A stretch of 64,000 bases of DNA from a virus (lineage: Duplodnaviria; Caudoviricetes). Positions 584-57,899 of the stretch are shown here, piece after piece. Under the pieces are notes generated by a model. The model was not told where the DNA came from. It saw only the letters and a program-made list of their open reading frames with translations, and did no database searches. The position numbers and the translations under genes were made by a program. The stretch lies in the IMG/VR virus record IMGVR_UViG_3300048998_000202, one strand, 5' to 3'. Numbering within the stretch: position 1 is the first letter of the stretch; each line of letters begins with the position of its first letter.

Positions 584-598
584 CAGTGGGTTTCCTCG

Positions 599-3771: not shown

Positions 3772-3772
3772 G

Positions 3773-4198: not shown

Positions 4199-4242
4199 GG
4201 CCACCTCCTCACTACTTCCTCGGTTAGGAGGTGGAGCCGACA

Positions 4243-4938: not shown

Positions 4939-4948
4939 GGTGCTCCGA

Positions 4949-18998: not shown

Positions 18999-19244
18999 CT
19001 ACTCGACCGGACGCAAGGTGACCTGGGACGGAGTCACTTCGAGCTGCATTCCGTATCGGGCGAGCACCTCGGAGATCTCCTGAGAACAGGCGACCATGCG
19101 CTGCTGCTGCTCTTCGGCGAGGAGCTGGCGAGCCGCCGTCAGTGCGTCGCCTTCGACGGCGGATGCCGAAGGCGACCCTTCCTCCAGGTGGTTGCTGTGC
19201 ATTCCGTCCTCCGGGGTCATGCGATCTTCGTGACGCGCAGCCAC
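18999..19244 (-). CDS. Small hypothetical protein (fibre chaperone-like)
   Basis: Coiled-coil ORF overlapping the end of the fibre gene. Confidence 0.5.
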   Translation of the reverse strand: MAARHEDRMTPEDGMHSNHLEEGSPSASAVEGDALTAARQLLAEEQQQRMVACSQEISEVLARYGMQLEVTPSQVTLRPVE

Positions 19245-21970
19245 GAGTTGGCGAACAAGGTGGTGGCTGTGGCGCTGGACGTGGCCTGGGCCCAGCGCAG
19301 GGTCAGACTCCCGGCGGTGCTCCCGACCGTCAGCAGCCCTCGGGGAAGGGCGACGGCCTTGACTCCGGCTCCGGAGGCTCCCACTGTGTCCTCGACCCCG
19401 AGAGGCTGCCGGGCGAGTTTGATGCTGCCGGTGCCGCCGGTCTGACTGGCCGAGGCCCCGTTGACGGTCCAGTCCATGAGGGCGCCGGTCGGACCGGTGA
19501 AGGTGACGCGCAGGTCTCCTGCGGTGTCGCCGTCGTAGAGCAGGAAGGCGTCCATGAGGTAGATGCCGTTGGCGGCGACTGATACGACAAGTTGGTCATC
19601 GTCCTGGACGGTGATGCTGCTCGTCACCGTCTCGTCTGCGGTCTTGCGGACGACTGTGATTGGCTGCTGTCCGTGGGCAAGGTCGTAGTCCGTGCCGTCG
19701 GAGCCCTTCCAGCGGGGCAGGCCGGACGAGGAGTACATGACGCCGCCGCCGGTAGGGGTTCCTGCCGGAGGGGTCGTGGCGTCGGCCATGCCCAGGACCC
19801 CGATGCCGCCGCCCAGTGAGGTGGTGTTCAGGCGCAGTGCGGTGGTGGCCTGGAGGGCCCCGTCGGTCTTGAGGACAGCGACGTTGGAGCGGTAGAGGTT
19901 GGTGTCCCGGGTGGCCGCCCCGGTGCCCCACTCCTGCTTGCCGTCCACGTACGTGACGTGCCGGGTGGTGGTGTCCCCCGACACCTGGCCCTGCCAGGAG
20001 CGGGCCGTGGTGTCCGTACCCGTCACCATGGCCCCCTGGCCGCCGGTAGCGGTCGGCAGGATCGTCAGGGCTATACCGCTGGCGCGGGTGAGGGACAGGC
20101 CGCCAGCGGTGCCTGAGGAGCCTCCGATGGACACCAGGCCCGTGGAGCGGGTCACGGCGATCGGGGCGTCCAGGAGGGTGCCTGCATCGTCGTAGCGCAG
20201 GATCTGGAGGTCGGTGCCGGTGTCACCGCCAGCTTCGGTGGTGTTGTTGGCCCGCAGGATCCAGCGGCGGCCCGTGGTGCCCATGTCGCTAGAGATCGAC
20301 AACTGGAGGTCCTTGTGGACCGTGTTGTTGCCGCCGACACGCAGGGCGGTGTTCTGGCCCGCGTAGGTCCCGGTGGCCATGTTCTGGGCCCGGACCGAGA
20401 AGTCCGCCAAGTTGGTGCGGATGTTGGTGTAGTCGATACCGATCGCCACGTTGTCGATCGCGTGGGCGCCGTCCACGGCCTGATTGATGAACGGCACCTC
20501 CAAGCGGCCCTGGAGGGCGCCTGTGGAGTCCGCGATCTCCAGTTCCCAGTGCCCGTGTACCGAACCGTGGTCGTTCGCCTCGTAGTGCGCGCCCGTCCAC
20601 ACCACGGGCTTCCAGCCGATGCCGCTCGACATCGGATTCCGGGTGGCCGGGTCGTAGCCGCCCTTCTTCGTGGAGGTCTGGACGGGAAGGTAGAACGCCA
20701 GCATGGTCTTGGCGTCGCTGCGCATGGCGAAGTTGCGAATGGTCTCGCCGAAGGAGCTGAAGTTGGCCCGCTGATACGAGTACAGATTCAGGCGGCCCGT
20801 GGTGTCGGTGCCGGTGCCGTCGTCGTCGCCTCCGGTGTAGGTGGAGGGGATGCTGACGGAGTCCACGGCCCCGGTGCTGCCGATGGGGTATCCCGACACG
20901 GCTCCGAAGCGGTTGAGGACGAGCTGTCCTGCAACCGTGCCACCGGCAAGCGGCAAGTAGGTGCTGGCGGCATTCGCCCGATCCCCATGAGGATCACTGG
21001 CGGCCACATGCGAGGCCACCACGGCCGCCGGGGCGTCTCCGGCAGCCACGGTGGTGGAGGACGTCCCCACATTCTTGGTGGCAGCGCCCCCCAGACCCAG
21101 GCTGGTACGCGCTGTCGCGGCATCATCGAGGTCGGAGAGGTTCGAGTCGGCCTGGAGAGCGCCCGTGATGCGGGAGTCGTCTCCGGCCGCGATCTGGTTG
21201 GTGGAGGTACCGACGTTGCGGGTGGAGGAGTTACCGAGGCCGAGGTTGGTGCGTGCGGTAGGGGCGTCGAGGTCAGAGAGGTTCGCGGACTTCTGAGCGG
21301 CTCCGGTGATGCGGGCGTCCCCGCCGTCGGCCACGGTGCCGCTCGTGGTGCCCACGTTGCGCAGGGCTGCCGCGCCCAGCCCGAGGTTGATGCGGGAGGC
21401 GCCCGCGTCGTCGAGGTCGGAGAGGTTGTTCTCGACCAGCAGGCGACCGGATTCGACATCCGTGACCCGACTGGCCAGCGTGGCTCCGGAAGAGGCCGAA
21501 TAGGCACCTACGTCGCTTGAGGTCAGCGTCACCGGACCGGTCTTGGTGTTGACCGATGTCACTGCGGAGGAGGGCGCCGGAGGGAGTTGGCCCGAGGGCA
21601 CCTTGCCGTCACTCCCGAGCGAGGCCACGCCGTTGGCTGCGCCCTTCGCGCTGACCGGAACGTAGGAGCCGCTCAGCGACTGCACGATCTGGCCGGTCTG
21701 GGCGTACAGGGTGGTGAGGGCCCCGGCGCTGTTCCTGGCGTAGACCTGGGTGAGGCCGTCAGGGCCGAGGAACTGCGGGATCAGGCAGTCCGAACCGATG
21801 TCCAGAGTGGAGCCGATGGGAGTGCCGTTGGGCGCCTGGATGCTGGCGAGGGTAGTCCCGGCCGAGTCGGTGTAGATGGTGACCGTGTCGCCCTGGGGGC
21901 TGTACAGGGGTGTTCCGGGCGTACCGTACCGAAAGACCAGGCGGTCCTGGGGGAACAGCCAGCGCGTCAA
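19217..21970 (-). CDS. Fibre-like virion protein with internal repeats
   Basis: 917 aa; three NLSDL..A.AR..LGLG..A.RNVGT repeats; GVASLGSDGK repeat. Confidence 0.7.
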   Translation of the reverse strand: MTRWLFPQDRLVFRYGTPGTPLYSPQGDTVTIYTDSAGTTLASIQAPNGTPIGSTLDIGSDCLIPQFLGPDGLTQVYARNSAGALTTLYAQTGQIVQSLSGSYVPVSAKGAANGVASLGSDGKVPSGQLPPAPSSAVTSVNTKTGPVTLTSSDVGAYSASSGATLASRVTDVESGRLLVENNLSDLDDAGASRINLGLGAAALRNVGTTSGTVADGGDARITGAAQKSANLSDLDAPTARTNLGLGNSSTRNVGTSTNQIAAGDDSRITGALQADSNLSDLDDAATARTSLGLGGAATKNVGTSSTTVAAGDAPAAVVASHVAASDPHGDRANAASTYLPLAGGTVAGQLVLNRFGAVSGYPIGSTGAVDSVSIPSTYTGGDDDGTGTDTTGRLNLYSYQRANFSSFGETIRNFAMRSDAKTMLAFYLPVQTSTKKGGYDPATRNPMSSGIGWKPVVWTGAHYEANDHGSVHGHWELEIADSTGALQGRLEVPFINQAVDGAHAIDNVAIGIDYTNIRTNLADFSVRAQNMATGTYAGQNTALRVGGNNTVHKDLQLSISSDMGTTGRRWILRANNTTEAGGDTGTDLQILRYDDAGTLLDAPIAVTRSTGLVSIGGSSGTAGGLSLTRASGIALTILPTATGGQGAMVTGTDTTARSWQGQVSGDTTTRHVTYVDGKQEWGTGAATRDTNLYRSNVAVLKTDGALQATTALRLNTTSLGGGIGVLGMADATTPPAGTPTGGGVMYSSSGLPRWKGSDGTDYDLAHGQQPITVVRKTADETVTSSITVQDDDQLVVSVAANGIYLMDAFLLYDGDTAGDLRVTFTGPTGALMDWTVNGASASQTGGTGSIKLARQPLGVEDTVGASGAGVKAVALPRGLLTVGSTAGSLTLRWAQATSSATATTLFANSWLRVTKIA

Positions 21971-22040
21971 CTCTGCCTCCAGCAGTCGGCCCGGGAAGGG
22001 GTTCTCACCCCTTCTTCGGACTCAGGAGATCCAGGACATG

Positions 22041-22151
22041 GCTGAGGGCGCCACCCCGAAGGATGACGCCCTCCCCTGCCGCGCCGCGCCTCGCCCTGCC
22101 ATGCCGAGCCTAGCCGTGCCGTGCCGCGCCGTGCAAAACCTGACTCTATCA
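22041..22151 (-). ncRNA. Solo GGY-NN pentamer small-RNA cassette (11 units, 22076-22130)
   Basis: TGATAGAGTCA leader, then GGCGC GGCAC GGCAC GGCTA GGCTC GGCAT GGCAG GGCGA GGCGC GGCGC GGCAG, then a GAGGGCG/CGCCCTC hairpin. Confidence 0.8.
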
Positions 22152-22159
22152 GGTCCTGG

Positions 22160-23923
22160 TCAGCGGACGACCCAGTTGCCCGCAGGGGTCGGTAGGTACT
22201 CCTTGGCGCTCCACTGGGTGCTGATGGCGACCGGGGTGGTGCCGTTGATGGTCTGGCTGGAAGTGGTGGCGATGTTGACCGCGTTGGCGGAGGCGTCGGT
22301 CTTGACCACCACGATGTTCTTGTTGCGTCCGACGGCTGTCGGCAACGTGACGGTGTGAGCGGCGGCCGTGCAGTTGACGAGAATCATCTCGTCGAACGAA
22401 CTCACCGCGTAGTCGGCCGCGACCGAGATCGCCGGGTAGGACCGCTGGCCGTCGATGATGTCGAATCCGACGGGGTTGTCCAGGGCCAGGTTGGCCGAGG
22501 TGTACAGCCCCATGATCGCCACCTCGCCCCGGGTGGCGATCAGACCCTGACCGGAATTGTTGTCGCCGAACTTGGGCGTGCCCTCGGTGTCGATCTTCAG
22601 GTAAATGAAGGGGCCGATCCCTCCGGCGCCCTGGCCGAGGATGTAGACCAGGTAGCTACAGCTCTCGATCGACAGCATCGTGGCCACGATGGCGTGGGAG
22701 GACCCCGCCGACCCGTAGTAGCCGCCGACCGGGCAGAAGGCTGCCCAGCAGTACAGGATCCGCATGGCATAGATGTCGGAGTGCTCGGTCACGAAAAATC
22801 CGTAGGTGTATCCCCCGTGACAGGTCACGTTGCGGATCAGGCAACTGTCGTTGTTGCCCGAGGAGGGGAAGAGCACGCCGATCGACAGGCCCGAGGAGAA
22901 AGAGCCGAAGGCCGTGTAGTCGCCGCCCGTGACCGATCCGGCGGTGCCGTAGGCGAAGTCGCTCAAGGTGGCGTTGGCGACGCCGGACAGGTCCAAGGCC
23001 GACATGGTCAGGCCGCTGGCACTGTGAGCGGTCAGGATGGACATGTTGCGGAAGTTCACGGCGAGGTTGGTGTAAAGCAGGGCGGAGGTGCCGTAACCAC
23101 TGGGCTGGGACGGGCCGCCGATGACCGCCGAGTTGCCGTTGTCGTTGATGCTGTTGATCTGTGCAGCGGGCGAAGCATGCACCAGGAACGACACCAGGGT
23201 GGCGCCGCCGGTCTGCGGGACGAGTTGGAGCCAGTGCTGGACGGAGGAGCCGTCGACCGGGCCCTCGAAGGTGAGGGTCAGCTTGTTCCCGGCGACCGGC
23301 AGTACCGGCAACGTGAGCTGACTATTGCCCTTACTGGAGCCTCCGGTGCGCAGGGCACCACCGATGCCGTAGAACCGCCCCTGAGCCGCCGGTATCTGGA
23401 CGATGGCGTTATAGCTGTGCGCCAGACCGTAGGCCACCGCCGCGTCGATGGCGGCCTGGAACGCCACGGTGTCGTCGGTTGCCCACAAGACCATCGCACC
23501 CGAGATCGAGGTGGAGGCGTTGGCGCTGAGGACCGCGTGTCCGGAGTTGGTGACGCTCTGGATGAGGGCGATATGACAGGTGGCGGCAGCAGTCCCCGCG
23601 CCCTTGACCATGACGAGCTTGCCCGCGTCCCCGGGGACGAACTTCAAGCTAGTGGCGCAGGCCAGGATGGGTGAGCCCGACGTCATGGCGCCGTCGGTGA
23701 CGATCTGCCCGTCTCCTTTGGCGCCGTAGGCCGTGGGGTCGAACACCCCTGGCGCGGCTCCTCCGATCTGGGAGAACGAGGAGAACAGCGCCGCTGCGGC
23801 CGTGGGACTCAGGGCCAGGTACTGATCATCGGTAAGGGTGTAGGGCAAGCCACCCTGGGCAACGATGCCGCCGGGCAGCATGACATCGACCAGACCGGGC
23901 TTGAGCGTGACGCTGTACGGCAC
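22160..23923 (-). CDS. Tailspike/depolymerase-like beta-helix virion protein
   Basis: FDPTAYGAKGDG...TDDTVAFQAAIDAA pectate-lyase-3-like start. Confidence 0.7.
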   Translation of the reverse strand: MPYSVTLKPGLVDVMLPGGIVAQGGLPYTLTDDQYLALSPTAAAALFSSFSQIGGAAPGVFDPTAYGAKGDGQIVTDGAMTSGSPILACATSLKFVPGDAGKLVMVKGAGTAAATCHIALIQSVTNSGHAVLSANASTSISGAMVLWATDDTVAFQAAIDAAVAYGLAHSYNAIVQIPAAQGRFYGIGGALRTGGSSKGNSQLTLPVLPVAGNKLTLTFEGPVDGSSVQHWLQLVPQTGGATLVSFLVHASPAAQINSINDNGNSAVIGGPSQPSGYGTSALLYTNLAVNFRNMSILTAHSASGLTMSALDLSGVANATLSDFAYGTAGSVTGGDYTAFGSFSSGLSIGVLFPSSGNNDSCLIRNVTCHGGYTYGFFVTEHSDIYAMRILYCWAAFCPVGGYYGSAGSSHAIVATMLSIESCSYLVYILGQGAGGIGPFIYLKIDTEGTPKFGDNNSGQGLIATRGEVAIMGLYTSANLALDNPVGFDIIDGQRSYPAISVAADYAVSSFDEMILVNCTAAAHTVTLPTAVGRNKNIVVVKTDASANAVNIATTSSQTINGTTPVAISTQWSAKEYLPTPAGNWVVR

Positions 23924-23980
23924 AGGTCCTCCAGGGGTGCGTCTTCACCCCTTCCCGGGCCTGAACCGGGTCTGGACATG

Positions 23981-24013
23981 ACGAAGGCCCGCTCCCCACG
24001 GGCGGGCCTTCGT
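23981..24013. terminator. Intrinsic terminator hairpin
   Basis: ACGAAGGCCCGC...GCGGGCCTTCGT inverted repeat. Confidence 0.7.
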
Positions 24014-24083
24014 GCACACTCATCAGGATTTTAAAATCCTGTCTCCTGCTGCTGCGCTGCTCCACGCTGCGGAGCGGACTCTA

Positions 24084-24674
24084 TCAGGACGTGGGGGTCT
24101 GCGACCGCTCGGTCAGCATCTGCTGGAGACGGTTCAGGGCCTGCTCCTGCTTCTCGACCTTGTCCGCCAGTTCGGCAGTGGTCTCCTTGGTCTCCCGGCG
24201 GACGGCCTGGGTCTCCTTGCGGGCGGCCTTCAGCCCCTCCTCCAGCCGATCCTGCCGCCGCGACAGACGCCGGGTGATGTCCGAGACGGCCTGGAGAGCC
24301 CCGGCCTGAGCGTCGTACACCTGCCCCTGCTGCGGAGTCAGCTCGTTGCGGTCGGCCTTGGTCAGAAGATCTATGGCCGTACGGATCCGGCGGTTGGCCT
24401 TCTTGGTCTGGTACCGGGCCGCGCCCCCGTGCTCGGAGGCGTGCATGACGCGGTAGCCCACTTCCCGCTCGTTGGTCAGAGCCCGCTGGTGCTTGTCCAG
24501 CAGCTCCTTCTCCGCACGTCTCACCGGGCTGCGGTCGAGCCGGATGTTGATTCCGGCCCACTCCGAGAGCTCCTCGTACGTGACGACGGTGTCCGGATCG
24601 AGGTCGCGCAGACCCTCATAGATCAGGACCCAACGGGCGACGTCGCCCTTGGGCTCGAACGGCTTGGTGCCCAT
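24084..24674 (-). CDS. Accessory protein co-transcribed with the RAMP gene (possible winged-HTH plus coiled coil)
   Basis: 196 aa; VVTYEELSEWAG and REVGYRV segments; long charged coiled-coil C-terminus. Confidence 0.7.
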   Translation of the reverse strand: MGTKPFEPKGDVARWVLIYEGLRDLDPDTVVTYEELSEWAGINIRLDRSPVRRAEKELLDKHQRALTNEREVGYRVMHASEHGGAARYQTKKANRRIRTAIDLLTKADRNELTPQQGQVYDAQAGALQAVSDITRRLSRRQDRLEEGLKAARKETQAVRRETKETTAELADKVEKQEQALNRLQQMLTERSQTPTS

Positions 24675-24718
24675 TCGTTCGTTCTCCTTGTTGTCGGTGC
24701 TGCTGATACTGGCGGAAA

Positions 24719-25297
24719 TCAGCCCTGGATCTGGGTGACCTCGACGTCGAACCGCCCGAACCGGGGACGGTAGTCACCCAGTCCGATCATCTGGCCCGCC
24801 TTCTCGGCGATGCTGGTGATCTGGTCCAGGTCGAGCTGGCCGTCGTCCACGATCAGGTCGGCCTCCAGCGCCCACTGCGGGAACTTGGGCCGGGTGCGCA
24901 TGACGCGCGAGGTGGTGACCCCCACGGAGAGCCGGGAGACGAAGTTCTTGTCCTTCCACAGTCCCTCGACCGTACGGGATCCGCTGTAGCCCAGGGGGTG
25001 GATCTCGTTGACGACGACGACACCTCGCTCGACGGCCGGGCCCTGCCGGGTCATCTTGGCCGCCTTGATCAGGCAGGCGTGGATGTTGGCGCCGGGGATG
25101 TACGGACCGGTCTCCTCGTCGAAGTACAGGCCGCCCTCGAACTCGATGCGGGCCATCTCCTCGTGGTCGGACTCGGTCTTGATGCGCTTGCCGGAGACCT
25201 TTTTGAGCTGCTTGGTGATGGTCGCCAGCGGGTCGGACAGTTGCGCGTTGTGCATCAGCAGCGACGTGGTTCCGATGATGGTCAGGCGGACCTGCAT
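24719..25297 (-). CDS. Stand-alone Cas7/Csm3-like RAMP protein (Vipr-like RNA-binding effector)
   Basis: beta1 VRLTIIGTTSLLMH; GPYIPGANIHACL (cf. Csm3 PYIPGSSLKG); C-terminal G-loop IGLGDYRPRFGRF; ATG at 25297 after GGGAGA; adjacent to the pentamer array. Confidence 0.75.
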   Translation of the reverse strand: MQVRLTIIGTTSLLMHNAQLSDPLATITKQLKKVSGKRIKTESDHEEMARIEFEGGLYFDEETGPYIPGANIHACLIKAAKMTRQGPAVERGVVVVNEIHPLGYSGSRTVEGLWKDKNFVSRLSVGVTTSRVMRTRPKFPQWALEADLIVDDGQLDLDQITSIAEKAGQMIGLGDYRPRFGRFDVEVTQIQG

Positions 25298-25334
25298 GAG
25301 TTCTCCCTGGTGTCGGTACTCTCTGGCGCCACCG

Positions 25335-25364
25335 AACATACTCCAAGGATTGTTGGAGTGTCAA
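25335..25364 (-). promoter_or_regulatory. Sigma70/HrdB-type promoter with a palindromic operator in the spacer
   Basis: TTGACA-CTCCAACAATCCTTGGAG-TATGTT. Confidence 0.75.
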
Positions 25365-25374
25365 CGGGGCAAAA

Positions 25375-25874
25375 CGAAGGGCCCGGGATCCGAAGATCCC
25401 GGGCCCTTCTCCATGCCTCGCCGTGTCGAGCCTTGCCATGCCGGGCCATGCCCGACCAAGCCGTGCCACGCAAGACTTGACTCTGTCAGTTCCACCACGA
25501 TCTGTCAAACGACGAAGGGGACCACCCGGAGGTGATCCCCTTCTCCCTGCCGTGCCTTACCCGGCCCTGCCTAGCCATGCCACACCGCACCACGCCCCGC
25601 AGGTCTTGACGTTATCAAGACCCTTCGGAGCCGTCAATGACGAAGGGGCCCTCCGTAGAGGACCCCTTCTCCTATGCCAAACCTAGCCATACCCTACCCT
25701 GCCACGCCAAACCTAGCCAAGCCATGCCCTGCAAGACTTGACTCTGTCAGCTCCTACGGCATCTGTCAACGACGGAGGGGCCCCACCGTAGTGGAGCCCC
25801 TCTCCCATGCCCGGCCTTACCCAGCCCTGCCTTGCCTCACCTCGGCCAGCCGTACCGAGACCTTGACTGTATCA
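25375..25874 (-). ncRNA. Array A: four GGY-NN pentamer small-RNA cassettes (10, 11, 10, 11 units)
   Basis: Pentamer tracts at 25807-25856, 25674-25728, 25547-25596 and 25413-25467, each with a TGAYAnnGTCAAG leader, TTGAC -35 (three of four) and a GC-rich terminator hairpin. Confidence 0.85.
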
Positions 25875-25877
25875 GGA

Positions 25878-26747
25878 TCAGTAGAACCGGGACCAGTACC
25901 GGGGCCGCGCCGCCACCGAGCCCGCCATGCGGGTAGGCCCGTACCTGCCGTAGACGCCGCCCGAGATCAGGACGGCCGGGCGTCCGAGACCCATCTGGCT
26001 GATCTTGAAGACATCGAGCTGGGACTTGGCGGCCTGCTCCTCCTCCATGAGGACGTCCCGCCAGCGCTGGACGTAGTCCCGGCGGTCCAGTCGGGAGACG
26101 TTGCCGGAGCCCTGGAACATGGGCTGCTCGGTGTAGGAGCGGATCAGGTGCTTGAGGGTCTCGATCCAGGTCATGGCCTCCAGCAGCGGGCCCCACTGGG
26201 GATAGGGGAACTGCGCTCCCCCGTCGCCGTCCACGGTGAAGGTCTGGAAGGGCTGCGCGATGGTGTTCATGCGCCCGAGCGCGATGCGCATCAGTTCGGC
26301 GATCCGGCCCCGGCCGAACTTCGACTGGACGTAGGTCGTCAGGTTGGGGCCGCCACCTGGGGAGTCGATGGTGTCGGCGATGCGGACCATGACGCGCTCG
26401 ATGATGTCTTTCATCGGGACCACCAGGCCGTCGTACGACGGGGCGGCCGGGCCGATCTCGATGCCGGACTCGTAGTACTCCTGCTGACCGGTCAGCAGGT
26501 ATGTCCAGGCCAGGGTGTAGGAGCCCGGGACGGAGGTCTCCACGCTGTTGAAGGTCGCCGAGTAGTCGCCGGTCGCGTTGTGGGTGGCCAGCCGGGAGAA
26601 GATCTCGTTGCCGGTGTTCTCGGAGACCATGGTGAGGGTGACCCCGGCGTCGGCATCTATCGGGACCTGGTTCTGGAGGATCTTCAGTCCCACCACGTCC
26701 ACGGCGTACTGCGATACGTACTGCCGATCGTTCCAGTACAAGGCCAT
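25878..26747 (-). CDS. Head-tail adaptor/neck protein
   Basis: 289-aa ORF in the head-completion region. Confidence 0.55.
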   Translation of the reverse strand: MALYWNDRQYVSQYAVDVVGLKILQNQVPIDADAGVTLTMVSENTGNEIFSRLATHNATGDYSATFNSVETSVPGSYTLAWTYLLTGQQEYYESGIEIGPAAPSYDGLVVPMKDIIERVMVRIADTIDSPGGGPNLTTYVQSKFGRGRIAELMRIALGRMNTIAQPFQTFTVDGDGGAQFPYPQWGPLLEAMTWIETLKHLIRSYTEQPMFQGSGNVSRLDRRDYVQRWRDVLMEEEQAAKSQLDVFKISQMGLGRPAVLISGGVYGRYGPTRMAGSVAARPRYWSRFY

Positions 26748-26756
26748 GGTCGAGTC

Positions 26757-27410
26757 CTAGCGGTCGGTCGCGTTGACGAACATGGCCAGGATGCGGCTGG
26801 TGCTCAGCGTCATGGAAGAGCCGGTGGGCGAAGCGGTGATCTGGATGCCGACCGAGTGGGAGCCCGCGCTGATGTTGCGTACGCCCAGGACCGGGATGGT
26901 CGTGGACCAGTGACCGGTGCCGAAGGTGGAGTTGTCGGGCCAGTTGGTCAGGACGTACTCCGCCATGGTGGCGTCGAAGGCCGACACCGCGCCGTCGATC
27001 AGGATGCGGTTGGTACCGCCGATGAAGCCCCGGGTGGGCAGGCTGAACTCGTTGGTACCGATGCACAGCAGGCTACCGGGCCGGTTCACGGTGAAAGTAC
27101 CGATGGTGTAGCTGACGACGGTGTTGTGGTTGATGGTGGCGTTGGGCCGCAGAGCGCCCCACCACACGGCCGGGCCGTAGAGCATCTCGCGCCAGGTGGT
27201 GCCGTTCCACATCAGGGTACGGCGGGTGTCCGTCTCGATGATCTGCATGCCCGTCTGGCCCGCACCCCAGGACGGCCGGGTGGTGGACGTGCATATCCAG
27301 TCGCCCGTGTGCTGGTCCAGGATGTTGAAGTTCTGGACGAAGTCGGTCCGCAGGAACGGGTCCGACCCGTCGGGGATCTTGATCCCCATGTGCTGGCTGG
27401 TGGTGGACAT
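26757..27410 (-). CDS. Virion protein
   Basis: 217 aa, beta-rich, preceded by the late-promoter-like motif. Confidence 0.55.
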   Translation of the reverse strand: MSTTSQHMGIKIPDGSDPFLRTDFVQNFNILDQHTGDWICTSTTRPSWGAGQTGMQIIETDTRRTLMWNGTTWREMLYGPAVWWGALRPNATINHNTVVSYTIGTFTVNRPGSLLCIGTNEFSLPTRGFIGGTNRILIDGAVSAFDATMAEYVLTNWPDNSTFGTGHWSTTIPVLGVRNISAGSHSVGIQITASPTGSSMTLSTSRILAMFVNATDR

Positions 27411-27502
27411 CCGCTCCCGATCCTCTCGTGGTGACCTTCACCCCTTCCGGGGCGACCTGCGGTAGCCGACAGGACCGGTCGGGGCGACTACCAATAGATG
27501 TG

Positions 27503-27541
27503 CGAGGAGCCCCGTACGTCAGGTTCGTACGGGGCTCCTCA
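27503..27541. terminator. Intrinsic terminator hairpin
   Basis: GAGGAGCCCCGTACG...CGTACGGGGCTCCTC. Confidence 0.7.
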
Positions 27542-27550
27542 CGTCCGACA

Positions 27551-28936
27551 TCAGGAAACGGTGACGTTGCCCGACGCGGCGGAGGTGGTCGTGGAGACCG
27601 ATCCCTGGGCCCCCACGGTGGCGGTGTCCACATGGCCGGTGGTCAGCGCGGTGAAGTCGTTGCTCAAGACGTTGCCCGCCACGGTGTGGACGGTGGTGTC
27701 CTGGCCTCCCAGGGTGACGATGTAGTTGATCGGGGCGCCCGAGGACGGTGCGGACCACACGACGTGGATGGTGCCCGCCGACGGGCTGGTGACCGTCGGG
27801 GCCGCCGGGGCGGTGGGCTTGCCGAAGGCCGCCGAGGCACTGGAGGTGGCGTTGGCGACCGCGCCGTTGGAAGTGACCGTGGCCGTGATGGCGGTGGCGC
27901 TGGCGACTCCGGTGAAGGTGGTCGTCAGAGTCCCGGCGGCCACGGTCTTGGTCTGGCCGGACGACAGGGTCACCGTGTAGCTGAGCACGGTGCCGCCGGA
28001 CGTCGGGGCGACCCAGGTGGCCACCACGCCGCCCACGGTGGCGTTGCCGGACAGGACGACGCTCGTGGGGGCGCCGGGGCGACCCTGGAGGCCGGAGCCC
28101 GACTTGATGGTGCCGTCGGCGCCGTAGATGGGGTTCTGGGCCCAGTAGGGGTCCAGGCCGCCGGGCTTGCCGACGTCCGGCTCATCCGGGTTGTACGGCG
28201 TCACGGAGGCCGAGGCGGTGCCCAGCGGGCCGTTGCCGTTGCGGTTCCGGGCCAGCACCTGGAAGGTGTACGCCTGGTCGGGGACCAGGTTCTGGACGGT
28301 GACGGTGGTGACGCCCCGGCCGGTGTAGGTGGTGCCGCCGGTCGAGCCGACCACCACGTATCCCAGGACGGGCGCGGTGGCATGCGGGTCGGCCACGGTG
28401 GCCCACGTGACGCTCGCCGTACGGGCTCCGGCGGCCACGGTGGGGGTACCGGCGGGGGCGACCGGTACGAGGGCGCTGACGGGCCCGATGGCACCGATGT
28501 TGCCCGACTCCAGGGTGCCGCTGAGGTTCTGGGCGTAGTCGGTGCGCACCGATCCGTCGGAGATCGGGGTGTCGGTCCGAGTGGTGTCGGCGCCTCCTGC
28601 GGCGCCCACGAGGCCGACGGTGAGGGTCGGGGCCCGGTACGCCTGGGTGACTCCGGAGGTCTGGGGCCAGCCGATCATGCCGGTCTCGACGGTGCCCGCC
28701 AGCAGAGGCGGAGGGGTCGGGGTGTACGGGCCGTTGGTGGCGTTGGTCGCTGAGGTGTCCGGAGTGCCGGTCAGCGTGCCACCGGTCTGGACGTTGCTGC
28801 CGCCGCCGCCAGCGCCGGAGTTGGCGGTGTCGGTGTTGGACGCGCGGTCTTGGGTTCCACGGGGGGCAGCACCGGCATTTCCGGTCACACCCTCGGTGTC
28901 GATCTCCTGACCCGAGTATCCGGGCGGTGTGGTCAT
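27551..28936 (-). CDS. Fibronectin type III repeat virion (decoration) protein
   Basis: VTW...GYVV...VQNLVPDQAYTFQVLARN and two further FN3-like units. Confidence 0.8.
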   Translation of the reverse strand: MTTPPGYSGQEIDTEGVTGNAGAAPRGTQDRASNTDTANSGAGGGGSNVQTGGTLTGTPDTSATNATNGPYTPTPPPLLAGTVETGMIGWPQTSGVTQAYRAPTLTVGLVGAAGGADTTRTDTPISDGSVRTDYAQNLSGTLESGNIGAIGPVSALVPVAPAGTPTVAAGARTASVTWATVADPHATAPVLGYVVVGSTGGTTYTGRGVTTVTVQNLVPDQAYTFQVLARNRNGNGPLGTASASVTPYNPDEPDVGKPGGLDPYWAQNPIYGADGTIKSGSGLQGRPGAPTSVVLSGNATVGGVVATWVAPTSGGTVLSYTVTLSSGQTKTVAAGTLTTTFTGVASATAITATVTSNGAVANATSSASAAFGKPTAPAAPTVTSPSAGTIHVVWSAPSSGAPINYIVTLGGQDTTVHTVAGNVLSNDFTALTTGHVDTATVGAQGSVSTTTSAASGNVTVS

Positions 28937-28964
28937 GGTGCTGCTCCCTCGGGGACTCGGTGTA

Positions 28965-29585
28965 CTACTGCTTTGCGGCGGTGGAGGACGAGGTGGTCTT
29001 CTTCGCTGCGGTCTTCTTGGCGGGAGTCGCTTCGCGGCGCTCCTGGCCCTTCTGGGCGGCTACGGCCTCGTCCTGCGGGTTGGAGGCCCCGGCGATGACC
29101 TGCTGCCCGTAGGACTCGCTCTGGCCGCTGTCAGGGACCTGGGTGATTCCGGCGTCCACTCCGCTGGCGTCCCCCGCCACGTTGGGACTGCGGGGAGCGT
29201 CCGGGGCCGCCCCGGTGTCGTTCCCCGGCGCGATGATGTTCCCGCCGTGCTCGGGGACGCCGCCGTTTTCGACGGTCTGCTGCGGGAGGTTCTGGGCGAC
29301 GGCGGTGGCCTCCTCGTGCTTGAGCAGGCCGCGCACCTCCTCCACGATGTCGGCGGTGCGCTCGCGCACGACGGCCTCCACCTTGGCCACGACCCGTTCC
29401 ACATCACCGAAGATGCGAGTGGTGCCGGACACGCGCTCGTTGTGGCCGCCGCCGGTACCGGAGGTCTCCAGGGTGCCGGTCATGGCCGTAGGGTCCGGGA
29501 TGTGATCGACGGATTCCTGGTAGCCAGTGGCCGCCGGGGAGTCCTCCGGGATCTCGGAGTTCTGGTTCTCAGGCTGTTCTGTCAT
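28965..29585 (-). CDS. Hypothetical protein
   Basis: 206 aa, with RBS; AKKTAAKK tail. Confidence 0.6.
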   Translation of the reverse strand: MTEQPENQNSEIPEDSPAATGYQESVDHIPDPTAMTGTLETSGTGGGHNERVSGTTRIFGDVERVVAKVEAVVRERTADIVEEVRGLLKHEEATAVAQNLPQQTVENGGVPEHGGNIIAPGNDTGAAPDAPRSPNVAGDASGVDAGITQVPDSGQSESYGQQVIAGASNPQDEAVAAQKGQERREATPAKKTAAKKTTSSSTAAKQ

Positions 29586-29598
29586 GTGTCGCCCCTTC

Positions 29599-30135
29599 TC
29601 AGTCGCGCTCGCGGTTGCCGATGTTCACTCGGACCCACTTGGTCTTGGCCTGCTCGCCCGTGGTGTCCACCTCCGGCACGTACTGAAGCGCGAGCCCCTT
29701 GTGGCGGGGGCACAGCGGGGGGATGTCCTTCAGCAGCTTCTCGGAGATGGCCACGGCTTCTTCACAGGTACCGATGCCCCGCGAATCCGGGCCGACGCAG
29801 AACGCGCTGACGGTGTCCCGGCTGGTCGGCTTCTCGATCGTTGCCTGGATGTTCTCCTTGGCCCCGTCCTGACGCCGACGGAAGGCGTCCACCTGACGGC
29901 TCAGAGCCTCGACCACCTCGGGGTCGGACTCCTCGTCCATCAGCTCCACGACGCCACGGGCCAGGGCGCGCTTGAACGCGACCGACTCCAGGACGGCTTC
30001 GGGGATGTACTGGATGTCGTCTCCGGAGGGGTCGCCGCTGGCGGCCCACTCCACGGAGTGGGTCCCCTTGACGTCCGAGGCGAGGACGGTGACGCCGTCC
30101 ATCAGGTTGCGGGCAACGATCGAGCCGACAGGCAT
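29599..30135 (-). CDS. Hypothetical protein
   Basis: 178 aa, preceded by the late-promoter-like motif. Confidence 0.65.
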   Translation of the reverse strand: MPVGSIVARNLMDGVTVLASDVKGTHSVEWAASGDPSGDDIQYIPEAVLESVAFKRALARGVVELMDEESDPEVVEALSRQVDAFRRRQDGAKENIQATIEKPTSRDTVSAFCVGPDSRGIGTCEEAVAISEKLLKDIPPLCPRHKGLALQYVPEVDTTGEQAKTKWVRVNIGNRERD

Positions 30136-30358
30136 GAGGGTCTCCGTTCGTGAAGGTCTTCTCGTCCTTTACGCGGAGTCGTCACGGGTCCAACAGGAAA
30201 GGCCCCGGCCCGGGGGTACCGGGGCCAGGGCCTTTCGTGGACGATCGGCGCCACGACTCAGGTCCGTGGGGGACGGAAGGAATCGGCGCCGCCTCGTGCA
30301 CGGGGAGCGTGGCACGGTGGGGTAGACGCTGTCAAGGCGAATGTGTTCCACTGGAGAG

Positions 30359-30598
30359 ATGGAAGATCAGCACACGATGCAGACAGACACCCCCACCGAC
30401 GACCTGAAGCTGTACGGGATCTCCGAGCTGGCGGATCGCTGGAAGGTCTCTAAGCAGCGGGCTGACGAGATCGCCTCCAAGCGCCTCCCACAGCCCCTCA
30501 CGCTCAAGATGGGCCGCATCTGGACAGAACTCCAGGTGGAGAACTTCGAGAGAGGGTGGGTCCGTAAGACGGGGCGTCACATCGTCCCCAGGACTTGA
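30359..30598 (+). CDS. Small HTH DNA-binding protein (AlpA/excisionase-like)
   Basis: LYGISELADRWKVSKQRA..LPQP..GRIW..QVE; start may be 30377; its stop codon overlaps the first cassette leader of array B. Confidence 0.75.
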   Translation: MEDQHTMQTDTPTDDLKLYGISELADRWKVSKQRADEIASKRLPQPLTLKMGRIWTELQVENFERGWVRKTGRHIVPRT

Positions 30599-31362
30599 TA
30601 TCGTCAGGGGTTACTGGGCTCGGCAGGGCTAGGTAGGGCAGGACTGGGCACGGCATGGGAGGGGCTTCCTACGGGGAGCCCCTCAGCCGTTGACAGGCGC
30701 TCTTGGGAGTGACAGAGTCAGGTCTTGCAGGACCACACGTGGGCGTGTGGAGAAGGGGCGCTTCTTCCAGGAGGCGCCCCTTCGTCGTTTGACAGACCGG
30801 CACGGGGGTGACAAAGTCAGGTCTTGCATGATGGGAAGGACACACGGTTGGTTTCTGAGGCCGGAACCGTGTGGATGCGATCGGCCCTCAAGGCCGTGGA
30901 CGCGTCCGAAGGCCCCCTCTGAAGATTCCTGGAGGGGGCCTTCGTTCGTTTGACCGGACGACATTAGGGCTGACAGGGTCAGTTCTTACAGGGCACCGTC
31001 TGGTTGGGCACGGTAAGGCATGGTGGGGTAAGGCACGGCTGGGCAGGGGAGGGCGACCATCTTCGGATGGTCGCCCTCAGCCGTTTGACAGGTGCGGGTG
31101 GAGCTGACAGAGTCAAGTCTTGCAGGGCCGGGCCCGGTAGGGCGTGGTTTGGCGTGGTGTGGTTGGGCAACGCATGGCATGGCATGGCAGGGGAAAGGCC
31201 CCAGGATTTTAAAATCCTGGGGCCTTTCGTTACGCCCTGAAGGAACTGATAGAGTCATGGTCTCGGCAGGCCGAGGCTAGGTAAGGCACGGCGGGGCAAG
31301 GCACCGCCCGGTAGGGCAAGGCATGGGGAAGGCCCCCTCGGATTCTCCCGAGGGGGCCTTCC
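30596..31362 (+). ncRNA. Array B: six promoter-terminator cassettes, four with GGY-NN tracts (8, 11, 13, 12 units) and two with non-pentamer hairpin cargo
   Basis: TTGAC...TGACAGAGTCAAGTCTTGC leaders; e.g. GGCCG GGCCC GGTAG GGCGT GGTTT GGCGT GGTGT GGTTG GGCAA; a hairpin follows each unit. Confidence 0.85.
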
Positions 31363-31387
31363 GTTGTCCTGAAGCGACTACTCTCCG

Positions 31388-32377
31388 TCACGCCTTGGTG
31401 ATCGTCGCGATGCCCCTGGGGTTCAAAATGGACATATTGACCATTTCGTCAAATACCCATCCCTTCCAGAAGGCTTCGACCATGTGGTTCTCTTCCACGT
31501 CCAAACTGTACAGAACGGGGAAAACGCCCAAGAAGTTGGGCTCCGGGGTGAGGAAGACCTTGCCCTGCGGGACGATGATCGACCGCTGGATCTGGAACTC
31601 GCCGAACGAGGTGATGGTCTCGCCCGCGACGACCCGGTCCTTGAAGGCCCAGCCCGTCTGGTTGATGTCCCACCGGTACAGGTCCCGGAAGTCGAACGGG
31701 TTGATCAGGATCCGCGCCGACTGGAGCTCGTGCATGTCCGTCATGGCGACGGCCGAGTACAGCGAGCCCGGCGTCAGGTAGCCCGACGCCTCGGTGATGT
31801 TGTGGTTCGGGGTGACCGTGTGGTCCGGGCGGGTGGCGTAGTCCGTCAGCGCCGCCTGGAGCAGTACGAGCAGCCGGGTGTCCTCCTGCTTGAGGATCGC
31901 CTGCTTGGTCTCGTCCTGGGCCTGCTCGACTGCGTTGATACGCAGGTAGAACAGGTCCTCCTTGCGGATCGCGGGGCGCGAGGCGATACGGAAGAACCGC
32001 ACCGGAACGCGCTTGCCCTCGAACGGAGTCACACGGACTTCGCCCTCGGTGCCGGACATGATGTACGCCTGGCCCAGGTCGTCCCACACGTCGTACTCGA
32101 CGGGGGTACCCGGGGTGACCGGGTCCTCCACGAGCACGTTGCGGGTGATGCCCTGGTAGCGGAGCTTGAGCTGGATGGGACCGACCATCCCGACGCCCAG
32201 ACGGCGGATGCCGCCGGTCTCGTCGGAGAGGATCAGCGCCATCTTCTTGACCTTCGCCTCATGCGTGAGAGGCGCGGCCTTCTCCCGGCGGGCGAGGATC
32301 GCGGAGGCGTAGTCGTCGGACTTCTTGGCCACACGGCCACGGAGCGACGAGGTTGCGGCGAGAGTCTGAGTCGGCAT
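31388..32377 (-). CDS. Major capsid protein
   Basis: 329 aa after the scaffold and decoration genes; PIQLKLRYQGITRNVL and FDEMVNMSILNPRGIA resemble actinobacterial myophage capsid proteins. Confidence 0.88.
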   Translation of the reverse strand: MPTQTLAATSSLRGRVAKKSDDYASAILARREKAAPLTHEAKVKKMALILSDETGGIRRLGVGMVGPIQLKLRYQGITRNVLVEDPVTPGTPVEYDVWDDLGQAYIMSGTEGEVRVTPFEGKRVPVRFFRIASRPAIRKEDLFYLRINAVEQAQDETKQAILKQEDTRLLVLLQAALTDYATRPDHTVTPNHNITEASGYLTPGSLYSAVAMTDMHELQSARILINPFDFRDLYRWDINQTGWAFKDRVVAGETITSFGEFQIQRSIIVPQGKVFLTPEPNFLGVFPVLYSLDVEENHMVEAFWKGWVFDEMVNMSILNPRGIATITKA

Positions 32378-32387
32378 CAGTCAGCTC

Positions 32388-32912
32388 CTAGTACTTCTGA
32401 CGAAGGCCACCGATGGTGATCTTCGTGGCGGAGTTGACCTTGAGGAGCCGGGCGACCGGCTGCACCGTCAGAGCGGTGACGACGCTGCCGTTGGTGGCCA
32501 GCGCGAGCTTCCCGCGACCGGTGCCGGTGGCGGCGCCGTAGATGAGCGTCTCGGTACCGTCACCCGGCTCGGTCCAGCTCTGGGTGGATTCGAAGGCCGG
32601 GGCGAGGATCTCGAACTCGGCGTCCGGGGCGAGCTTCCACACCGCGAAGGTGTTGATGCCCGACTCCAGTGGTTCGTCGATGCCGTCGCCACCCACGTAC
32701 AGGGCGCCCAGGCCGTAGGGGATGCTGCTGGTCGCGCCCACGAGAGACACGTTCTCCCCGGCGGTCTTCATGAAGACCATTCCCGGCCAGATCGGGACAC
32801 TGCGGTCCCAAGCGGCGTCCAGGAAGCAGCTCGCGGGCGTGGATTGGGTCCAGCCGTAGAGCGGTCGGATCGTGCGCTTGATGTACGACGTTGCCATCTT
32901 CGTACGAAGCAC
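32388..32912 (-). CDS. Capsid decoration/stabilising protein
   Basis: Between scaffold and capsid genes; GTG start after GGAGGGG. Confidence 0.6.
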   Translation of the reverse strand: MLRTKMATSYIKRTIRPLYGWTQSTPASCFLDAAWDRSVPIWPGMVFMKTAGENVSLVGATSSIPYGLGALYVGGDGIDEPLESGINTFAVWKLAPDAEFEILAPAFESTQSWTEPGDGTETLIYGAATGTGRGKLALATNGSVVTALTVQPVARLLKVNSATKITIGGLRQKY

Positions 32913-33105
32913 TACAACCCCTCCCATCTCATCTATTCGGACATATGGGCCGTCTGCTCGATGTCCGATACGAGACGGGCCCTTCTCACCCCTTTCGGGG
33001 GCTCAGACCGGGGAAGACAGGATCAAGGGGGACGGAAACATGCCGCAGCCCCCTCCCGGGATGACGGGAGGGGGCTGACGGGAGCTAGTTGAAGAAGTCG
33101 GGGTC

Positions 33106-34014: not shown

Positions 34015-34092
34015 GAGATGTACTTCCTCTGGTCGGGCTCGCGGCAAGCCGAGAGCTTTACGTCTTCACCCCTTACGGGGACTACTGGCAGA

Positions 34093-37000: not shown

Positions 37001-37848
37001 GGGTGCCGCTCGCCTACCTCGTCCCAGGACAGGCCCCGCCCGGCAGTGGTGTTGATGGAGTCAAGACTTGCGGTACTCTGGATCTCGCTCGGCTCGGCTC
37101 GGATTGGCTTGGTTGGGCTTGGCACGGCAAGGTACGGCATGGCATGGGTGGCGGTCTCTCCGGAGGCCGCCACAGCCATTTTCATACCCCGGTCATCGAT
37201 CCCGGTGAAAAACGCCGTCGGATCCGCCGGGGGCTCCACCAGCAGCGAGTTCTCGAAAAACCGCAATCCGTAGCAGGTCTCACGGATGATCTCGCCGATC
37301 TTCTGCCCGGAAGCCGTCGTCCGGTAAAGCGTCATTCCCTTTGATCCAGGGATGTGGGCGCAGTATTCGGCAGGGGTAGTGGCCTTGTTGCCACAGGCGG
37401 AGCAGACGGAGAAGGCGACGTCGGTGCCCATGCTGGTTCTGGCGATGTTGCCGTTCATGATCTCGGCGGCCAGCTTGGGAAAGCGCAGCGCATCGACCTC
37501 TTGGAGGACCTCGACCCACCAGTCCCGGCTGCCGTCGCGGTTGCTGTCCTTGTGCAAAACCGCGTCGATGATCACACCACGGGCGCGCTTGTGATCTTCG
37601 TTCGCGTGATTGACGAAGACGGGCTTACCGATAAACGTCCGGTATCCCTTCTCCAGTTCCTCAGCGGGGAACTCGTCGAAGTTGTCGTTGCACCGGCTGG
37701 AGATGGCGCGGGAGCGCACGTACAGGTAGCCGGGGCGCACCTCATACGAAAAGTGGTGCCGGTGGGCGAAGCGGCGCAGCTCACGGGCACCCGCGTCCGT
37801 GGGGACGAGGGCCTTGGTCATGATCTGGGCGCTCGCGTACTTGAGCAT
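34093..37848 (-). CDS. Capsid maturation protease polyprotein (protease, ParB/Srx-like, glycosylase-like, GNAT-like and Zn-ribbon segments)
   Basis: NDNFDEFP..TFIGKPVFVNH..TSMG..FFENSLLVEPPADPTA; VADGHHR; WYPDAH..SAYSPQ..VVVDRHA..EVQAVTW; INWIGVD..KRRGVASAML; CPVC/CPAC. Confidence 0.8.
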   Translation of the reverse strand: MLKYASAQIMTKALVPTDAGARELRRFAHRHHFSYEVRPGYLYVRSRAISSRCNDNFDEFPAEELEKGYRTFIGKPVFVNHANEDHKRARGVIIDAVLHKDSNRDGSRDWWVEVLQEVDALRFPKLAAEIMNGNIARTSMGTDVAFSVCSACGNKATTPAEYCAHIPGSKGMTLYRTTASGQKIGEIIRETCYGLRFFENSLLVEPPADPTAFFTGIDDRGMKMAVAASGETATHAMPYLAVPSPTKPIRAEPSEIQSTASLDSINTTAGRGLSWDEVGERHPEIYGDPEIHGDRAEHADGEMIGWAASNLAHSTPDDPDANERSIDDLTFHHAMVSPSAIDHKRHEAGDYRVQHAAEGYRDNPEQMPPVVLVHRHGVFQVADGHHRTEAAKAAGIKKIHAYVAKSPLSDTPDEYGEKAPYHGARATNWPPKAKDPGKTPEGSGYAQDRMFEAAKKDPRFAEVGLKQDGDGHFVTTHRARSKSYPTPEEIPDSVVRQIAATGSRVTLADLMAEGAAATPPEDHPWFKEMGLSHHHVVDHWDQATSEEKAQGKRWYPDAHLVAKSIAKLDPRIKSDAEAAHKGAGVLSAYSPQQGWWANQHNAARAFHEQRAVGKGEGIMVMGSHANAAQKVMDGMNHQEALKGPKTQDFASLIEHGGNKPQSPEDAAAGKPKEPSDKVVVDRHALSVAAGRRLNADDVKGFPSQNRKHYEVVANHYRKAAAVISDREGREVPPHEVQAVTWLARQRLNAEGDTSGGQKGRNTVQRNQRKTWQDLSREHNPDLHQPPANSHVAGASGDLPEGLHFTYHGGPDYKYHVLRAHTPDRQQVGKLEWTKKREEYWDEKGPDDFRPDQHCDHCGMNGHADSWHVKPAGHINWIGVDDNLKRRGVASAMLDHAAAHYDPAPVHSPFATENGKGLQTGRGATPPEDSRRLLGRKLAYGETKAPEDVDTLREDACPVCGDRDTFDGATCQVCSYVAPPKMFQDPDLEKARQMDLRKDVAEFQDPANPNQIGPDGQPVENPADPAALDENGNPVNPDAADQGQQPGTLPGEVQAEVQPGGDPMGGDSPQDPNALGPDGQPQDPNELGAPVDPAMLGPDGQPLQQPGQQMMVGPDGMPIGPQALPADAVSSDGQPFTPGPDTPQGPGQPTGPEGPAGPQDLDTDGQIPNPDAGQGVPGTPGDGVPDLECPACGFQADATNPVSVDMDTSILPPTGEATPDGVQAGDVCPNCGQGQLMSPAEEQGETPLPMPV
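37053..37173 (+). ncRNA. GGY-NN pentamer cassette nested antisense in the protease gene
   Basis: TGATGGAGTCAAGACTTGC leader, 11 pentamers at 37091-37145, GTGGCGG/CCGCCAC hairpin. Confidence 0.75.
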
Positions 37849-39149: not shown

Positions 39150-39221
39150 GGGCGCTCCTCTCCTCACCCTTTCAAAGGGGTTGAGGGGGTTCGAACAGGA
39201 TTCCGGCGTGGGGATCTGGTC

Positions 39222-57611: not shown

Positions 57612-57646
57612 ACCCTTGACAACTCCATACGCTCCACAGCGGTGAT

Positions 57647-57890: not shown

Positions 57891-57899
57891 GACCAGCTT

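Follow-up and report, generated by a model that had tools for sequence, protein, structure and literature searches.

A probable type II-like VIPR locus and its guide RNA cassettes in a large actinophage

A 64,000-nt stretch of tailed-phage DNA (IMG/VR virus record IMGVR_UViG_3300048998_000202; the whole stretch is called the window below) carries, on the minus strand at 24084-25874, tandem tracts of five-nucleotide units in which a GGY triplet is joined to a variable dinucleotide (NN), followed by genes for a 192-aa and a 196-aa protein. What kind of system does this locus encode, and which DNA would it act on? VIPR is a CRISPR-related, RNA-guided DNA-silencing system of phages that was first described in 2026 and has been characterised in enterobacterial and Pseudomonas phages (bioRxiv 10.64898/2026.04.26.720920 = PMC13142463; 10.64898/2026.04.26.720927). 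Our data make it very probable that a type II-like VIPR system has its core locus in this region, with guide RNAs (vrRNAs) aimed at other DNA, motif III of ResIII-family superfamily 2 (SF2) helicases being the best-supported target class of one guide, vr3. Cassettes found elsewhere in the window make the core locus only part of the system.

Vipr, its guide cassettes and Vap

The 192-aa protein, encoded at 24719..25297 on the minus strand, contains PYIPG and IGLGDYRPRFGRF. In a phmmer search of the PDB its residues 4-188 matched residues 5-190 of the 202-residue chain 36pp_D, 'SUSP1 Vipr protein' (E = 3.7e-35), and it matched PHROG 4652 with E = 1e-58; Pfam and NCBIfam gave no match. With the same query, tblastn returned 131 phage records, Felixounavirus included. 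When aligned with SUSP1 Vipr (~36% identity), the G1 contacts H17 and D177 correspond to H16 and D175, the G2 contacts R138 and W178 to R136 and Y176 (the aromatic is kept), the Y3 contact R179 to R177, and the skip-base backbone contact K33 to K32. Across 33 homologs H16, R136 and R177 are invariant and D175 is nearly so, and in the G-loop, which is rich in glycine, G172 and G174 are invariant as well.

An AlphaFold2 (AF2) model of the protein, built on the homolog alignment, was confident (pLDDT 94.6, pTM 0.87). Foldseek against the PDB gave 73 matches at E <= 1e-3, and every match listed was to a Csm3, Cmr4 or Cas7 chain from a type III or type VII complex, with probability 1.00 and TM ~0.5. 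The confident model and these matches together argue for the presence of a RAMP fold, and our analysis identifies the protein as a direct sequence homolog of SUSP1 Vipr with a predicted Cas7/Csm3-type RAMP fold. An initial annotation, made from the sequence without database searches, had noticed PYIPG and a C-terminal G-loop in a 192-aa protein directly downstream of the cassettes and ahead of an accessory gene, had proposed the Cas7/Csm3 fold, and had likened the locus to the VIPR systems. The arrangement was confirmed and the fold supported, and the likeness to VIPR holds, given the 36pp match and the preprints (bioRxiv 10.64898/2026.04.26.720920, 10.64898/2026.04.26.720927).

On the minus strand, four independently promoted vrRNA cassettes stand in tandem, then vipr, then the 196-aa gene. 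Their leader boxes, TGAYAnnGTCAAG, start at 25874, 25749, 25617 and 25488 (vr1-vr4), and in vr2-vr4 a TTGACA or TTGACG -35 box is positioned 17-18 nt 5' of the -10-like part; vr1 has no TTGAC-type -35 box. Cassette vr1 (25768..25874; leader box 25874-25862) holds ten units at 25856-25807, with NN = AC TG GA GA AA AG TG AA CG AT and an imperfect third unit (GCC-GA, not GGY), and its tail is GGGAGAGGGG plus a hairpin that ends near 25768. Cassette vr2 (25635..25769; TTGACA at 25769-25764) holds eleven pentamers at 25728-25674, all perfect, with NN = AT TT TA TT GT AG AG AT TA TT AT. Cassette vr3 (25506..25637; TTGACG at 25637-25632) holds ten at 25596-25547, with NN = GT GC GT AT TA AG CG AA AC AG, preceded by a degenerate leader unit, TGC-GG, at 25601-25597. 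Cassette vr4 (25369..25508; TTGACA at 25508-25503) holds eleven at 25467-25413, with NN = AC TT CG AT CC AT AA TC AC GA AT and an imperfect ninth unit (GAC-AC, not GGY); its 15-bp hairpin tail is a predicted terminator directly before the promoter-like site of vipr (25335..25364, minus strand; TTGACA, 18-nt spacer, TATGTT). Reading the minus strand bore out the earlier description of four cassettes, each with a leader, 10-11 GGY-NN pentamers and a hairpin; all four NN strings had been given correctly, and the TTGAC box that was said to be usual is present in cassettes 2-4.

Every one of the four cassettes closes with a GGAGAAGGGG-type sequence and a strong hairpin of 12-15 bp, whose folding z-scores run from -2.4 to -6.7. 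The stem sequence varies among cassettes while pairing is always kept; RNAalifold was uninformative on a MAFFT alignment of the tails because MAFFT misaligned the variable stems. Runs of at least seven good GGY-NN units occur ten times in the window, against a mean of 0.02 in 100 first-order Markov shuffles, and the tracts are therefore not due to chance. The discovery paper describes vrRNAs as 9-16 tandem YNNGG units, with conserved GGY and hypervariable NN in 137 vrRNAs (bioRxiv 10.64898/2026.04.26.720920); the 10, 11, 10 and 11 units of vr1-vr4 fall within that range.

Two other readings of the tracts were rejected. A screen of GC content at third codon positions calls no gene there, and a 5-nt period cannot be coding; Rfam gave nothing at E <= 0.1 in 21900-37400, which set aside a known RNA family. 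The last five bases of the leaders read TGC-NN with variable NN (GG, AG and GT, at 25601-25597, 25733-25729 and 25472-25468, minus strand). Since TGC-GG in the vr3 leader aligns with a full GGC-GG unit in guides of sibling phages (described below), the leader seems to hold a degenerate extra 5' unit.

The 196-aa gene (24084..24674, minus strand) is vap1-like. Its product matches PHROG 5926 (E = 9e-6), as do sibling genes in the vap position (2e-6), gp77 of Gordonia phage MakoManhole (3e-12) and gp94 of Felixounavirus wV8 (7e-76); wV8 gp94 directly follows a Vipr that matches SUSP1 Vipr residues 1-195 with E = 6e-128. BLASTP links the window Vap to MakoManhole gp77, annotated as 'DNA binding protein', with E = 1e-6. 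In the AF2 model (pLDDT 83), residues 11-76 form a helix-strand-helix-helix-strand-strand arrangement of winged-helix topology, followed by long coiled-coil helices, and nearly all matches in a weak Foldseek search (best E = 0.015) are winged helix-turn-helix regulators. Type II vap genes are described in the preprints as encoding predicted DNA-binding, winged-helix-like proteins (bioRxiv 10.64898/2026.04.26.720920, 10.64898/2026.04.26.720927), and since the window model fits that description, we put the system either within type II or beside it. Homology to type II exemplars, as distinct from placement in the authors' tree, points to a type II-like VIPR. The accessory gene of the initial annotation thus stands as a gene, and is now specified as coding for a vap1-like protein with a predicted winged helix.

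Several observations weigh against the assignment to VIPR. The whole mechanism is transferred from SUSP1 across only ~36% Vipr identity. Residues E71 and M72 of the SUSP1 Y3 pocket are A and N here, and so are not conserved. The Vap link is weak and remote (the PHROG E-value above), pairwise BLASTP of the window Vap against wV8 gp94 was not significant, and the Vap fold search returned nothing at E <= 1e-3. Only a hairpin is evident in the tails, as against the pseudoknotted tail of the SUSP1 clade.

Target searches and the vr3 guide family

In SUSP1 GGY is held between thumb, G-loop and helix 1, with one Vipr per pentamer and NN presented; the skipped base is flipped into a thumb-bundle pocket in an R-loop triplex; and repression acts on either strand without a protospacer-adjacent motif and is enhanced by Vap (bioRxiv 10.64898/2026.04.26.720920, 10.64898/2026.04.26.720927). 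By homology with SUSP1, four vrRNAs of ~100 nt, each from its own predicted sigma-70-type promoter, would be coated by Vipr protomers polymerising one per pentamer. Each protomer would sequester G1, G2 and Y3 and present NN, so that the filament would read double-stranded DNA as NN-x-NN-x under a 1-nt-skip rule; the bound site would be transcriptionally repressed, with the winged-helix Vap assisting. One subunit per GGY, a displayed NN and a gapped target, possibly one that skips wobble positions, had all been proposed from the sequence; experiments on SUSP1 show this model, the target there often skipping the wobble base, and homology would extend it to this phage.

Targets were sought on both strands under the published 1-nt-skip rule, with a single wildcard standing in for each GGY. 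Within the window the best 1-skip score was 13-15 of 20-22, the same as with skips of 0 and 2, while a skip of 3 matched only the guide genes themselves. Self-targeting in the window was rejected, since the wrong skip rules reach best scores just as high; published VIPR systems likewise show no self-targeting at >=80% NN match. Because the guides have no match in the carrier's own window, vr1-vr4 would be aimed at DNA other than the carrier's.

The clearest lead comes from vr3, which with its degenerate leader unit reads GG GT GC GT AT TA AG CG AA AC AG. Its core, GT GC GT AT TA AG, is found in guides of 5/6 sibling lineages (96, 89, 81, 71 and 70% Vipr identity), and does not occur in the 4.6 kb of DNA that we read around vipr of the sixth. 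When the core and its preceding GG are reverse-complemented, with the skip at the wobble base, they spell, read as codons, L-Y-M/I-T-A-T-P, the motif III of SF2 helicases. Scanning with this coding pattern (G/C wobble, following Arg) turned up 18 IMG/VR loci, against ~0.4 estimated by chance. At one locus (L021) the gene at 112-5277 on the minus strand is complete and encodes a Type ISP restriction-modification enzyme of 1722 aa; its domains are Mrr nuclease, ResIII ATPase, coupler, N6-methylase and Type_ISP_C. A sibling guide, t2, matches 16 of these IMG/VR loci at 19-20 of 22 bases; vr3 itself matches Type ISP sites at ~16 of 22 (our own count on L021). Five viral records of the Type ISP type (G402-G406; 98-135 kb, two of them proviruses and one with direct terminal repeats) carry an LYMTATPR coding site and have no Vipr.

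A second set of matches lies in Streptomyces. In 121 Streptomyces genomes, vr3 gave five matches at <=3 mismatches, and 4/5 are one in-frame, wobble-skipping site in four genomes, at 19/22 bases (86%). This site reads A-A-F-R-L-Y-M-T-A-T-P or F-R-L-Y-L-T-A-T-P; nine consecutive units are perfect in two genomes, and the three mismatches fall in the last two units. In genome G118 the gene encodes a 923-aa ResIII/DEAD helicase with four HA domains, a candidate for a TtrA-like, telomere-associated helicase. In the ortholog of vr3 from sibling L062, an AT versus AG difference mirrors the natural Met versus Leu variants of the motif.

Other counts speak against a helicase target. The agreement of t2 is partly circular because the loci were fetched with a core-derived pattern, which leaves about six bases independent. 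A reversed-pattern control of vr3 also gave two matches at <=3 mismatches in the Streptomyces genomes, vr3 gave none at <=2 mismatches in 401 Streptomyces genomes, and by count alone a single gene family at three mismatches is not significant. Exact full-length 1-skip patterns of vr1-vr4 had no match in IMG/VR, nor did a 9-unit vr3 pattern. Scanned against metagenomes, that pattern gave 14 random-looking matches, and of four inspected three were clearly not helicase sites; in the metagenome matches at <=3 mismatches over the full vr3 pattern (n = 9), 1/4 free bases matches. Weighing both sides, we put the chance that the vr3 family targets ResIII-type helicase genes at about even. Motif III of ResIII-family SF2 helicases is nevertheless the best-supported target class for vr3; the evidence is suggestive, as it is for a class that would take in both the Type ISP enzymes of VIPR-less proviruses and phages and the HA-domain helicases of Streptomyces replicons.

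A more tentative proposal, which we consider rather unlikely as it stands, is that the vr3 family, kept while other guides turn over, is aimed at helicase motif III and not at structural genes of rivals, as an anti-defence or anti-plasmid weapon. If so, VIPR would silence a restriction or transfer gene on the host side or borne by a mobile genetic element (Streptomyces replicons, linear plasmids, proviruses), a use that the available text of the VIPR preprints does not mention. Should the vr3 family really be aimed at restriction or telomere-helicase genes, what is known of VIPR would reach beyond conflict between phages, to the RNA-guided silencing of genes of hosts or plasmids.

For the other guides, counts stayed at background. 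In the 401 Streptomyces genomes vr1 had three matches at <=2 mismatches, which is chance level, and 2 of the 3 lie in frame in one open reading frame (ORF) with a weak sacsin-like match. In 121 Streptomyces genomes vr4 had one match, again chance level, and its 9-unit pattern had two random-looking matches in IMG/VR, of which one lies next to a tRNA and the other in AT-rich DNA. Guide vr2, searched in IMG/VR, gave nothing above chance. Even in the E. coli pangenome, the published work reports identifiable targets for only about half of SUSP1-clade guides. The gapped-target idea of the initial annotation is therefore left with nothing clearly above background for vr1, vr2 and vr4 and with a suggestive best match of 19/22 for vr3.

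As an observation apart, vr1 matches 18/20 bases in two Streptomyces genomes (L008 and L009, 1501-1529), the count being at chance level. The L008 site, read in frame so that the skip falls on the wobble base, gives IGFQLFSPHV and belongs to an ORF of >730 aa with a weak sacsin-like ATPase match.

The strongest alternative, to which we give a little less than an even chance, is that the guides serve mainly in inter-phage warfare against close relatives, the targets of vr1-vr4 being located in sibling phage genomes and the vr3 match pointing to the helicase or Type ISP gene of rival phages. It agrees with the published VIPR targets, which are competing phages, satellites and prophages, and with the Type ISP matches, which come from IMG/VR proviruses and from a single 135-kb phage that has terminal repeats, none of them with Vipr. 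Against it, vr1, vr2 and vr4 had no site at <=3 mismatches in the five Type ISP-bearing viral records or in the fetched sibling loci, where vr3 had none either, although the sibling DNA searched spans only up to about +/-10 kb around vipr. The best vr3 matches, moreover, lie in Streptomyces genome contigs and not in viral records.

Sibling phages, further cassettes and the carrier

A large protein collection yielded 212 Vipr relatives at E <= 1e-10, and among those at 66-96% identity several lie on contigs 105-160 kb long. Each of the six sibling lineages that we read has vipr with a vap-sized gene downstream of it, and 5/6 have a 289-aa gene upstream; one 158-kb sibling contig has the gene order of the siblings read. 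What the arrays of sibling phages (70-96% Vipr identity) conserve is promoter box, GG columns and tails; the NN dinucleotides change. An alignment of seven cassettes that includes siblings shows GG invariant in most units and NN variable. As aligned, the vr2 tail (through ...TTCGTCATTGAC) is identical to that of guide s1 of sibling L012, and nearly every NN differs. This conservation of the scaffold with turnover of NN is the published signature of hypervariable NN and conserved GGY.

Cargo around the conserved vipr-vap pair differs among siblings: in L010 (7219-9559) three extra genes, one for a helix-turn-helix protein, stand between the 289-aa gene and the array. A small DUF397 gene lies near vipr in 4/6 siblings; in L059 it is upstream of vipr, and in L012 (8040-8234), L061 and L062 it comes after vap. 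In L060 (3834-3863) the guide with the conserved core is downstream of vipr, not upstream.

The guide repertoire of the phage extends beyond the core locus. The locus itself is as the initial annotation described it, but the system is larger: three further places in the structural module, which between them use both strands, hold at least six guide cassettes built with the same promoter box and hairpin tail, bringing the total to at least ten guides in four places. One additional cassette is at 22036..22150 on the minus strand (GGY in 13/15 units). A second array, at 30590..31368 on the plus strand, has four pentamer cassettes with tracts at 30617-30656, 30992-31056, 31126-31190 and 31265-31324. 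A solitary cassette at 37050..37182 on the plus strand (GGY in 10/11 units) is antisense inside the head-protease fusion gene (34096-37848, minus strand).

Two further cassettes of the second array, at ~30711-30790 and ~30808-30950 on the plus strand, have the same promoter/terminator frame and no pentamers. Both combine promoter box TGACAnAGTCAGG with a hairpin terminator of the GGAGAAGGGG/CCCCTTCGTC type, and the second has a ~100-nt payload that is internally complementary. They may be decayed guides, or other small RNAs riding the vrRNA expression frame.

These cassettes bear on an improbable alternative, that the system is a decaying or orphaned relic in which cassettes are transcribed and some guides no longer function. 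Besides the two cassettes at 30711-30950 that lost, or never had, pentamers, it could appeal to the single non-GGY unit in each of vr1 and vr4 and to the three guides (vr1, vr2, vr4) for which no target was found. Yet vipr and vap are intact, synteny is kept across lineages at 70-96% Vipr identity, and key Vipr residues are invariant; internal degeneracy is reported to be frequent in working vrRNAs, and the share of SUSP1-clade guides with identifiable targets in the E. coli pangenome is the half already mentioned. Least probable of all, and very improbable, is regulation of the phage's own genes, such as temporal repression of early or late operons: the locus lies inside the structural module, each guide has its own promoter and the self check covered 64 kb of a ~153-kb genome, but no self-match in the window rose above background, published VIPR systems avoid self-targets at the NN threshold given above, and the NN strings differ almost completely between 96%-identical siblings, which is unexpected for guides tied to conserved own genes.

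A very probable type II-like VIPR system sits in the structural module of its carrier, as PHROG scans of ten window proteins show. Some of these proteins come from phage structural or lysis genes, and the others lack a PHROG match. The scans mark a tail sheath (13720-15276), a tail fibre (19220-21685), the major head protein (31391-32377), the head-protease fusion, an endolysin (38193-39167), whose DNA resembles Streptomyces phage endolysins, and the portal (48771-50882). The carrier is a myovirus-type actinophage, Streptomyces-type, of ~153 kb (153,521 nt).

Downstream of vap, a GC-rich hairpin read from the sequence at 23980..24011 (minus strand) is probably the operon terminator. Before it, just downstream of vap, lies the palindrome CAGGATTTTAAAATCCTG (24040-24023, minus strand). 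It recurs at 31203-31220 on the plus strand as the top of the terminator hairpin of cassette 31126-31232. For a phage with 66% GC it is conspicuously AT-rich, and it may serve to bind a protein. Elsewhere, a 27-nt motif (CCGGTGCCCAGGC...GGTTACTTCAC) has four copies at 57544-57932 (plus strand), 81-100% identical and spaced 90-163 nt, mostly upstream of a 623-aa gene starting at 57920; the last copy overlaps the gene start.

Comparison with known systems

Class 1 CRISPR-Cas systems of types III and VII share with this locus a RAMP fold (RNA recognition motif core, thumb and glycine-rich loop) in Csm3, Cmr4 and Cas7, and a backbone that polymerises on guide RNA with a fixed period. They differ in that Vipr has no significant sequence similarity to Csm3, Cmr4 or Cas7, in a VIPR period of 5 nt with 2 nt read per unit as against 6 nt with 5 read, and in the published VIPR target, double-stranded DNA read through a gapped code. 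As the initial annotation had stated for CRISPR repeats, the 64 kb contain no CRISPR-like interspaced repeat array; the repeats are 5-nt-period tracts and cassette scaffolds only. No cas10, cas6 or cas1/2 turned up, vap and phage structural genes flanking the locus, although no dedicated cas search was run. A type III/Cas7 effector was rejected on the missing repeat-spacer array and on these neighbours. The region has the testable features of VIPR apart from the tail pseudoknot and natural targets, and it is not CRISPR-Cas because it has no array and no cas neighbours.

Cultured actinophages carry relatives as well. Full-length Vipr homologs with 47-54% identity are gp78 of Gordonia phage MakoManhole, gp41 of Gordonia phage Trine, gp34 of Mycobacterium phage LittleE and gp43 of prophiBWHA-1; they are annotated only as hypothetical, in genomes of 44-109 kb that are smaller or unrelated. 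The MakoManhole gene next to gp78 is, like the window vap, a PHROG 5926 member, labelled 'DNA binding protein'. A term search of the discovery preprint's main text found no mention of Streptomyces, actinobacterial or mycobacterial hosts, and one of a third VIPR preprint found none of Streptomyces or actinobacterial hosts. The present phage offers a guide-rich actinophage example of VIPR: its guides number at least ten, have promoters of their own and end in hairpin-terminator tails. Its sibling set, with a fixed scaffold and NN turnover, should be useful for work on guide evolution, and the example should help in adapting VIPR tools to Streptomyces and other high-GC hosts.

The closest published counterpart is type II VIPR, represented by SUSP1 and a Pseudomonas fulva prophage and made up of Vipr, vap1 and vrRNAs. 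Vipr is homologous over its full length, with most of the G1-, G2- and Y3-contacting residues and the G-loop conserved. The vrRNAs here are likewise ~100 nt and predicted to be independently transcribed, and they consist of 10-11 GGY-NN units followed at the 3' end by a predicted hairpin; directly downstream lies a small gene of DNA-binding type that is adjacent to vipr and shares its PHROG with a gene in the vap1 position; and the system is phage-borne, with no self-target (here, in the 64-kb window). Compared with SUSP1, Vipr is only ~36% identical, with W178 replaced by Y and E71/M72 by A/N, the host lineage of the carrier is high-GC Actinobacteria, and Vap has 50 aa more and a long coiled coil. 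A plain hairpin of 12-15 bp, in which the SUSP1 pseudoknot was not seen, makes up the tail and doubles as terminator, and unlike SUSP1-type systems this phage spreads its guides, at least ten of them, over four places on both strands of the structural module.

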